A stretch of DNA of 10,810 bases. Origin: a virus (taxonomy: Duplodnaviria; Heunggongvirae; Uroviricota; Caudoviricetes). The notes under the pieces are model-generated. The model did not search any database, was not told the origin of the DNA, and saw only the letters and a list, made by a program, of their open reading frames with translations. The position numbers were made by a program, and so were the translations under genes. The stretch spans positions 1 through 10,810 of the IMG/VR virus record IMGVR_UViG_2531839446_000011, one strand, 5' to 3'. This document shows positions 6,710 through 8,021 of the stretch, piece by piece (position 1 is the stretch's first letter; each line of letters opens with the position of its first letter).

Positions 6710-8021
6710 TCATTCTCCACTACTGCCTGTATCACTGCCCACTTCATCCAGTCCCTTAACATCCTGCCATGGCCCGTCACCAAACCTGACCTGCAAATGC
6801 TGAAACAGCCCCTGAACCTGTGTGGCATCTTTGGGGTCAAGAAAGGTCAGTCCGGTGATGAGTGCGCCATCTGTATCCGGGAACCAGCCATTGCTGTTTG
6901 TCTCAATAATGCTCGCCGGCCCCAGACGAAAACGGATTTGTGTCTCCCCCGGGTCGCCCTTTGGTCCCTGAGGTCCGGTTGCCCCCACCGGGCCAGCCGC
7001 ACCTGTTTCTCCTTTCGGTCCCTGTGGGCCTGCCGGACCTGCCGCACCGGTATCTCCCTTTGGACCCTGTGGACCTGCATTTCCCGTCAGACCGGTCTCT
7101 CCCCGCTCTCCCCTGGCGCCTTTCGGCCCCTGCGGGCCTGCCGGACCAGCATCACCTGCCGGTCCCCGCTCACCGGTTGCCCCGACAGGACCGGTGTCGC
7201 CACGCTCTCCTTTATCTCCCTTCGGCCCCTGAGGACCCGCGGGCCCCGGTTCTCCCTTTGGCCCGGGAGGTCCCACCACGGTGGGGATTCGGTTTACGGC
7301 GTCTTCCGCCGCTATCCTGCTTTGTTCCGCTGACTGTGCGCTTTCTGCTGACTCCCGGGCTTTTTCTGCTGCGGTCGTTGCATCCCTGGATGCATTACCG
7401 GCTGCACTTTCTGCCGTCTTTCTTGACAATTCAGCTTCTGCTGCACTTTGTGATGACTCACTGGCTTTTTGAGCGGCCGCAGAAGCCGAGGACGAGGACG
7501 CATCCTCTGACTGCTTTGCTGAGGCTGCACTTTCTGCCGCCTGCCGGGCTGACTCCGATGCCTCCCCTGCTGAAGTGTCAGCATTTGCAGCGCTCTCTTC
7601 TGCCTGACTGGCTGATATACCCGCATTCCTCGCTGACGTCTCCGCCTCTCCGGCATTCTTCTTCGCCTCCTCAGCGTGACGCGCCACCTCTCCACCATCT
7701 GTCAAACGGCGCAGTCGCCCCCGGCCGGGCATCCTCCTCCGTCATGGCACCGAGAAAATCATTCAGCGTACCCGGCTGAGAATCTTCATACACGGTGATG
7801 GTCCCGGCATGTGACGGCGGGAACCCTTCCACCAACAGAATAACGCTGTACTGACCGTACTCAACGTCCATGCTGTAACGCCCGGCTTCATCCGGATTTT
7901 CTGAGGCCAGCGTGTTCACCACCACCGTGGTGCTGTTACGTTTTGCTTTCAGCTGGATTGTGCAGTTCTGTACCGGTTTTCCTGTGCCGTCTTTCAGTAC
8001 ACCTGAAATCTTTACTGCCAT
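6710..8021 (-). pseudogene. stf: side tail fibre protein Stf (collagen-like), interrupted by a +1 frameshift at a C5/G5 run (7717-7721); encoded as ORF pieces 7671..8021 and 6710..7732
   Basis: The 7671..8021 ORF is near-identical to the lambda Stf N-terminus (MAVKISGVLKDGTGKPVQNCTIQLKA ... FPPSHAGTITVYEDSQPGTLNDF). After DARP the frame runs out; the 6710..7732 ORF continues in another frame with GRLRRL ... EVAR, matching lambda DARPEVLRRLELMVEEVAR. Removing one G from the run restores a continuous ~436-aa protein. Confidence 0.75.
6947..7273 (-). repeat. collagen-like Gly-X-Y triplet repeat region (about 36 triplets) within stf
   Basis: Protein residues 154-262 of the 340-aa [40 protein letters not shown] ... 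[11 protein letters not shown]. The GC-rich repetitive DNA also generates long spurious antisense ORFs. Confidence 0.85.

Follow-up and report, generated by a model that had tools for sequence, protein, structure and literature searches.

A side tail fibre gene on a prophage contig of E. coli is read as two overlapping ORFs in different frames, and the question raised by this locus is whether the gene is broken in the phage or in its sequence record. The stretch of DNA analysed here, referred to as the window, has 10,810 nucleotides and is the whole of contig ADUS01000071.1 (10.8 kb) in assembly GCA_000188875.2, a draft genome of E. coli RN587/1 (O157:H8 EPEC). In the initial annotation, the N-terminal Stf domain (7671..8021) and a collagen-like remainder (6710..7732) were assigned to different frames and their separation was ascribed to a +1 slip in a G5/C5 homopolymer, with the caveat that a sequencing error might be responsible. 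Both ORFs are present on the minus strand as described, and the observation is real in the deposited sequence; as biology it is most probably not real. The features of the window on which the argument depends are the following.

8755..10810, minus strand: tail tip gene J, C-terminal 685 codons, running off the contig end and split in three ORFs
8086..8685, minus strand: lom (Ail/Lom outer-membrane protein), intact, 199 aa
7622..8725, minus strand: intragenomic repeat of 1,103 bp, from lom across the spacer into the 5' ~400 nt of stf
6710..8021, minus strand: side tail fibre gene (stf-like), 1312 nt, compared with 1314 nt (437 aa) in intact relatives
7671..8021, minus strand: ORF1 of stf, 116 aa, starting MAVKISGVLKDG, deposited as EFZ71999.1
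6710..7732, minus strand: ORF2 of stf, 340 aa, remainder of Stf, +1 frame
7691..7722, minus strand: lesion cluster in stf, with changes private to ADUS01000071.1
6439..6708, minus strand: stand-alone Phage_fiber_C gene, 89 aa, intact
5449-6330, minus strand: nleH, type III effector cargo, intact
4814-5383, minus strand: nleF, type III effector cargo, intact

The gene order J-lom-stf-PF06820 gene is common to the window and all relatives. On the plus strand, region 1-4030 of the window contains a YdfE-like exonuclease of 823 aa (215-2686), an integrase (2948-4030) and, between the two, a DUF4224 gene (2745-2948), all pointing at nleF. One prophage's tail and cargo end is thus next to the integrase end of another, an arrangement that fits tandem prophages or phage-circle order. 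In most relatives nleF is followed not by an integrase end but by zinT and yedYZ-type genes of the chromosome.

Judged from its sequence, the gene at 6710..8021 is a lambda-type side tail fibre gene. The identity proposed for it in the initial annotation is borne out by the presence of PF08400, collagen repeats and PF06820, and by its site downstream of J and lom with a small fibre-associated gene after it. In the repaired Stf, PF08400 spans residues 1-133 (E = 1e-68; the profile has 134 positions), and matches to Collagen (PF01391) and Phage_fiber_C (PF06820, residues 363-426) are also found. ORF1 by itself matches PF08400; it carries the authentic Stf N-terminus to about residue 100 (ARP), followed by 16 out-of-frame residues and a stop. 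ORF2 contains the Ala/Ser-rich and Gly-X-Y collagen-like segments. Stf genes have one continuous reading frame, and the gene in the window departs from them in having two ORFs, with the frame break near codon 100, inside the conserved N-terminal domain and not at a domain boundary. By Pfam, the 89-aa gene at 6439-6708 is not a chaperone of the Tfa type but duplicates the C-terminal domain of the fibre as a gene of its own; PF06820 is found both in this gene and at the end of stf (6713-6991, minus strand), with 39% identity over 62 aa. Within the collagen-like Gly-X-Y tract (~6945-7290, minus strand), a single 9-nt unit (CCTGCCGGA) that keeps the frame distinguishes the window from E. coli D1, for example at ~7029. 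Stf homologues range in size from ~340 to 498 aa, which suggests that the number of repeats in the fibre shaft may be naturally polymorphic.

The minus-strand G5 run (C5 on the plus strand), given as 7717-7721 in the initial annotation, is located one base away, at 7718-7722. Alignment of the 141 nt around the break showed a match to the closest alleles except for five changes inside 29 bp. These are an A>G substitution at 7720, by which a G5 run takes the place of GGAGG; the gain of one G at 7716 (GGC-ACT to GGCGACT); the loss of one T at 7704-7706 (TTTT>TTT); the loss of one A at 7702 (GAAC>GAC); and the loss of one A at 7691 (GGAAGAGG>GGAGAGG). The four single-base indels within 7691-7716 have a net effect of -2 nt and account for a gene of 1312 nt instead of 1314 nt. 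The contig's own sequence across the lesion is CCGGGGGCGACTGCGCCGTTTGACAGATGGTGGAGAGG, and the undamaged sequence, taken from a sister copy in the same strain, is CCGGAGGCACTGCGCCGTTTTGAACAGATGGTGGAAGAGG. A +1 slip in a homopolymer therefore does not describe the lesion, which consists of a substitution and four indels. A single natural frameshift is also unlikely because it would be one indel, and the present lesion contains four 1-nt indels, of which three are contractions of short runs.

Removal of one G from the run had been proposed to give a continuous ARPGRLRRL... sequence matching ARPEVLRRL of lambda. The frame does reopen, to 436 codons, with ARPGRLRRL... after the N-terminus, and ARPEVLRRL is present at the matching place in lambda orf-401, which reads ...DDARPEVLRRLELMVEEVAR. 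The protein obtained in this way is not the authentic one. The intact copy reads ...PEALRRFEQMVEEVAR at the break site, and its FEQMVEEV is replaced by LTDGGEV after the one-G deletion, so that the segment is garbled and one residue short. The frame reopens because the net change becomes -3, which is a matter of arithmetic only.

A parallel with the frameshifted stf of lambda PaPa had also been drawn, and it holds to the extent that the genes are homologous and that both are annotated as two CDS (orf-401 and orf-314 in lambda). The N-terminus of orf-401 shares 62% identity with the window Stf over 247 aa and is nearly identical over the first 100. The parallel is a loose one, however, as the lambda break is at the orf-401/orf-314 junction, ~300 codons downstream of the break in the window, and lambda Stf is without the collagen tract and the PF06820 end that are both present in the window Stf. 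The lambda PaPa frameshift is said to have been verified by Hendrix and Duda in 1992 as a single-base laboratory-strain mutation.

Comparison with relatives bears on whether the run could have a function. A G5/C5 run at the overlap of the two ORFs, with GGAGGAGG ahead of the ORF2 ATG, could be read as a slippery or contingency tract (programmed frameshift or phase variation), or as a deliberate split into two ORFs with their own starts. Such functional recoding is extremely improbable in view of the relatives. One intact frame crosses the break site in all 22 of the other loci compared, and the intact relatives are annotated as a single CDS of 434-437 aa, with either 1314 nt (437 aa) or 1305 nt (434 aa), the shorter form having one 9-nt unit fewer in its collagen tract. 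Two checks named in the initial annotation, the homopolymer length in orthologues and the occurrence of the same two-ORF layout among them, gave GGAGG at the run position in 22/22 loci, with no length variant, and the two-ORF layout in 0/22; the aligned segment has 58 nt in these loci and 56 in the window. A conserved or length-variable tract, as in contingency loci, is thus lacking among the relatives. The frame difference takes four indels, the break cuts the PF08400 domain, and the segment is still garbled after a one-base slip. The string GGAGGAGG, which abuts the ORF2 ATG (7732-7745, minus strand), resembles a Shine-Dalgarno sequence and derives from Glu-Glu codons of the intact gene; the ATG itself is an out-of-frame G-ATG-CC within Asp-Ala codons. 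As far as sequence can tell, the string is fortuitous, and its spacing of 0-3 nt would be too close for efficient initiation.

Close relatives are the side tail fibres of EPEC/EHEC prophages (for example WP_012578868.1 of E2348/69 and WP_097560952.1), with 96-98% DNA identity to the window; the family is named 'prophage tail fiber N-terminal domain-containing protein' by PGAP. The relatives share with the window the order J-lom-stf-PF06820 gene-effectors and the succession of PF08400, Ala/Ser-rich and collagen Gly-X-Y segments, and PF06820. The window stf differs from them in being 2 nt shorter and out of frame from the private five-change cluster onward. When the lesion allele was compared with 5,426 complete genomes of E. 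coli, matches were obtained at 15,342 places, the best of which had 95.8% identity over 141 nt and corresponds to the intact allele. A synthetic 72-mer carrying G5 without the indels had no exact match in the same 5,426 genomes (best, 98.6%), and a degenerate pattern scan of species-representative genomes also failed to detect a G5 allele without indels. The exact lesion allele was absent from species-representative genome contigs, IMG/VR viral contigs and JGI metagenome contigs. Exact look-up showed that the 116-aa product of ORF1 is on record on ADUS01000071.1 only, and that neither the repaired 437-aa Stf nor the one-G-deleted 436-aa version is present in the protein collection. With the repaired 437-aa Stf as a protein query, the representatives listed had no more than 86% identity over the full length, with variation in the length of the collagen repeat.

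The sequence expected before the damage is found in the same strain. A look-up of the Lom protein identified a sister prophage on contig 21 of the RN587/1 assembly (ADUS01000021.1, locus L019), which carries an intact 437-aa stf (L019:6665-7978) and shows exactly this sequence at the lesion site. The two contigs are identical over the 1,103 bp between flanking differences at 8725 and 7622, except for the five-change cluster. Below 7622 they diverge by ~3%, with copy-specific bases at 7622/7619, and the neighbours of the contig 21 copy are cif, dinI and prfC. Part of J in the window, around 9450-9650, is also specific to this contig and lacks a counterpart in contig 21. The chance that five independent changes would all fall within 29 bp of 1,103 bp is P ~2e-6, so the five changes go back to a single event or a single bad patch. 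An origin of the cluster by gene conversion, with a divergent copy as donor, was rejected, as none of the indels occurs at any place in the 5,426 genomes. A real event of another kind would be a single localised hypermutation, by an error-prone repair patch or a template switch, with a similar event in J of the sister prophage. This is quite unlikely; if true, it would mean that a recurrent mutational process acts on prophage tail genes in RN587/1.

Other one-base indels in the assembly point to a technical origin. Two 1-nt contractions private to the window, T6>T5 at 9716-9720 (an A-run on the plus strand) and AAGG>AGG at about 10541, divide its J gene into three ORFs. At both sites, every comparator that aligns across the site disagrees with the window, and repair of both bases restores a single open frame of 685 codons. 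These contractions probably belong to the same class of artefact as the stf lesion; five of the six indels on the window contig are contractions of mononucleotide runs. On contig 21, J has five private 1-nt indels in 100 bp (L019 3585, 3606, 3623, 3673 and 3684), as judged against five mutually concordant comparators, and is thereby divided into ORFs of 395 aa and 733 aa. This cluster is 100-200 bp from L019 3790, the position at which the window contig ends, and the stf cluster is 70-100 bp inside the exact-repeat boundary (7622). Two separate clusters of one-base indels, each beside a repeat or contig junction, are therefore present in the ~23 kb sampled from this one 454 assembly. In E. coli 377323_2f (NZ_CP039404.1), a 'complete' genome, J, lom and stf each carry a frameshift flag, and several one-base indels set the sequence apart from the window and from other relatives; the tail-gene frameshifts of this genome may be technical.

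454 Titanium reads are ~400 nt long, and run-length miscalls are the dominant error of this platform, concentrated in read tails and in regions of thin coverage. The genome of RN587/1 was obtained from 8-kb paired-end libraries by 454 Titanium sequencing and assembled with the Celera assembler (PMC3715677). The locus shares with 454 run-length errors the documented platform, private contractions of mononucleotide runs and the presence of clusters on a second contig. The sequence is a draft assembly from an error-prone platform; the changes occur in this assembly only, and others like them are present elsewhere in it. It differs from the classic 454 miscall of long homopolymers in that the affected runs are mostly 2-4 nt and that one change is an apparent substitution. 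The short runs and the substitution point to a very poor local consensus and not to the usual long-homopolymer miscall.

The frame break in stf is therefore very likely an error of the local consensus near a repeat boundary in a 454 Titanium/Celera draft and would not belong to the RN587/1 genome, and the caveat about sequencing error in the initial annotation has become the best explanation. The make-up of the cluster and its absence from other sequences, the platform, the intact paralogue and a second such cluster in the assembly have been observed, and the cause at the level of the reads is inferred as follows. RN587/1 has at least two lambdoid prophages that share an exact repeat of ~1.1 kb containing lom and the 5' end of stf. 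Because the repeat should be longer than the reads, the assembler would have to stitch repeat and unique segments together, and the consensus ~70-100 bp inside the repeat boundary would be built from very few, low-quality read ends. Poor read ends of this kind would lead to miscalls in flow space, by which three short runs were under-called, a spurious G was added and an A was misread as G. The true locus would then be a normal side tail fibre gene of 1314 nt and 437 aa, reading ...CCGGAGGCACTGCGCCGTTTTGAACAGATGGTGGAAGAGG... like the other copy of the strain.

Several observations count against an artefact. Two-base runs are atypical of the long-homopolymer error of 454, and one of the changes looks like a substitution. 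All six indels of the contig are in two tail structural genes and the other genes are intact. Frameshifted J genes have also been annotated in other genomes, including the complete genome of E2348/69. Some of these observations would be accommodated by a genuine pseudogene, in which one of the two RN587/1 stf copies has been inactivated by a localised multi-change mutation and J has also decayed. A truncated N-terminal piece would then be made from ORF1, there would be little or no translation of ORF2, and side fibres could not be mounted. Frameshifted J is annotated in the defective lambdoid prophages of E2348/69, D1 and 377323_2f, and the loss of only J and stf, with lom, nleH, nleF, int and exo intact, is the pattern of decay with the cargo kept; indels limited to tail genes also fit real decay since selection for cargo genes would give an equal pattern. 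A pseudogene is nevertheless unlikely. Five changes in 29 bp are unlike an ordinary frameshift mutation, the remainder of the 1.1-kb repeat is without any change, a similar private cluster of 1-nt indels is present on another contig of the same 454 assembly, and none of the five changes has been seen in another sequenced strain (22 loci; 5,426 complete genomes).

Overall, this is an ordinary gene of the lambdoid side tail fibre family of EPEC/EHEC, with PF08400, a collagen tract and PF06820, and no new biology is attached to it. If the lesion were real, another lambdoid prophage of an EPEC strain would be defective, a common and expected finding. With a consensus error as the preferred explanation, the 116-aa EFZ71999.1, named 'prophage tail fiber family protein', and the fragments of J in RN587/1 are probable annotation casualties of a 454 draft, and they should not be counted toward prophage decay or phase-variable tail fibres.
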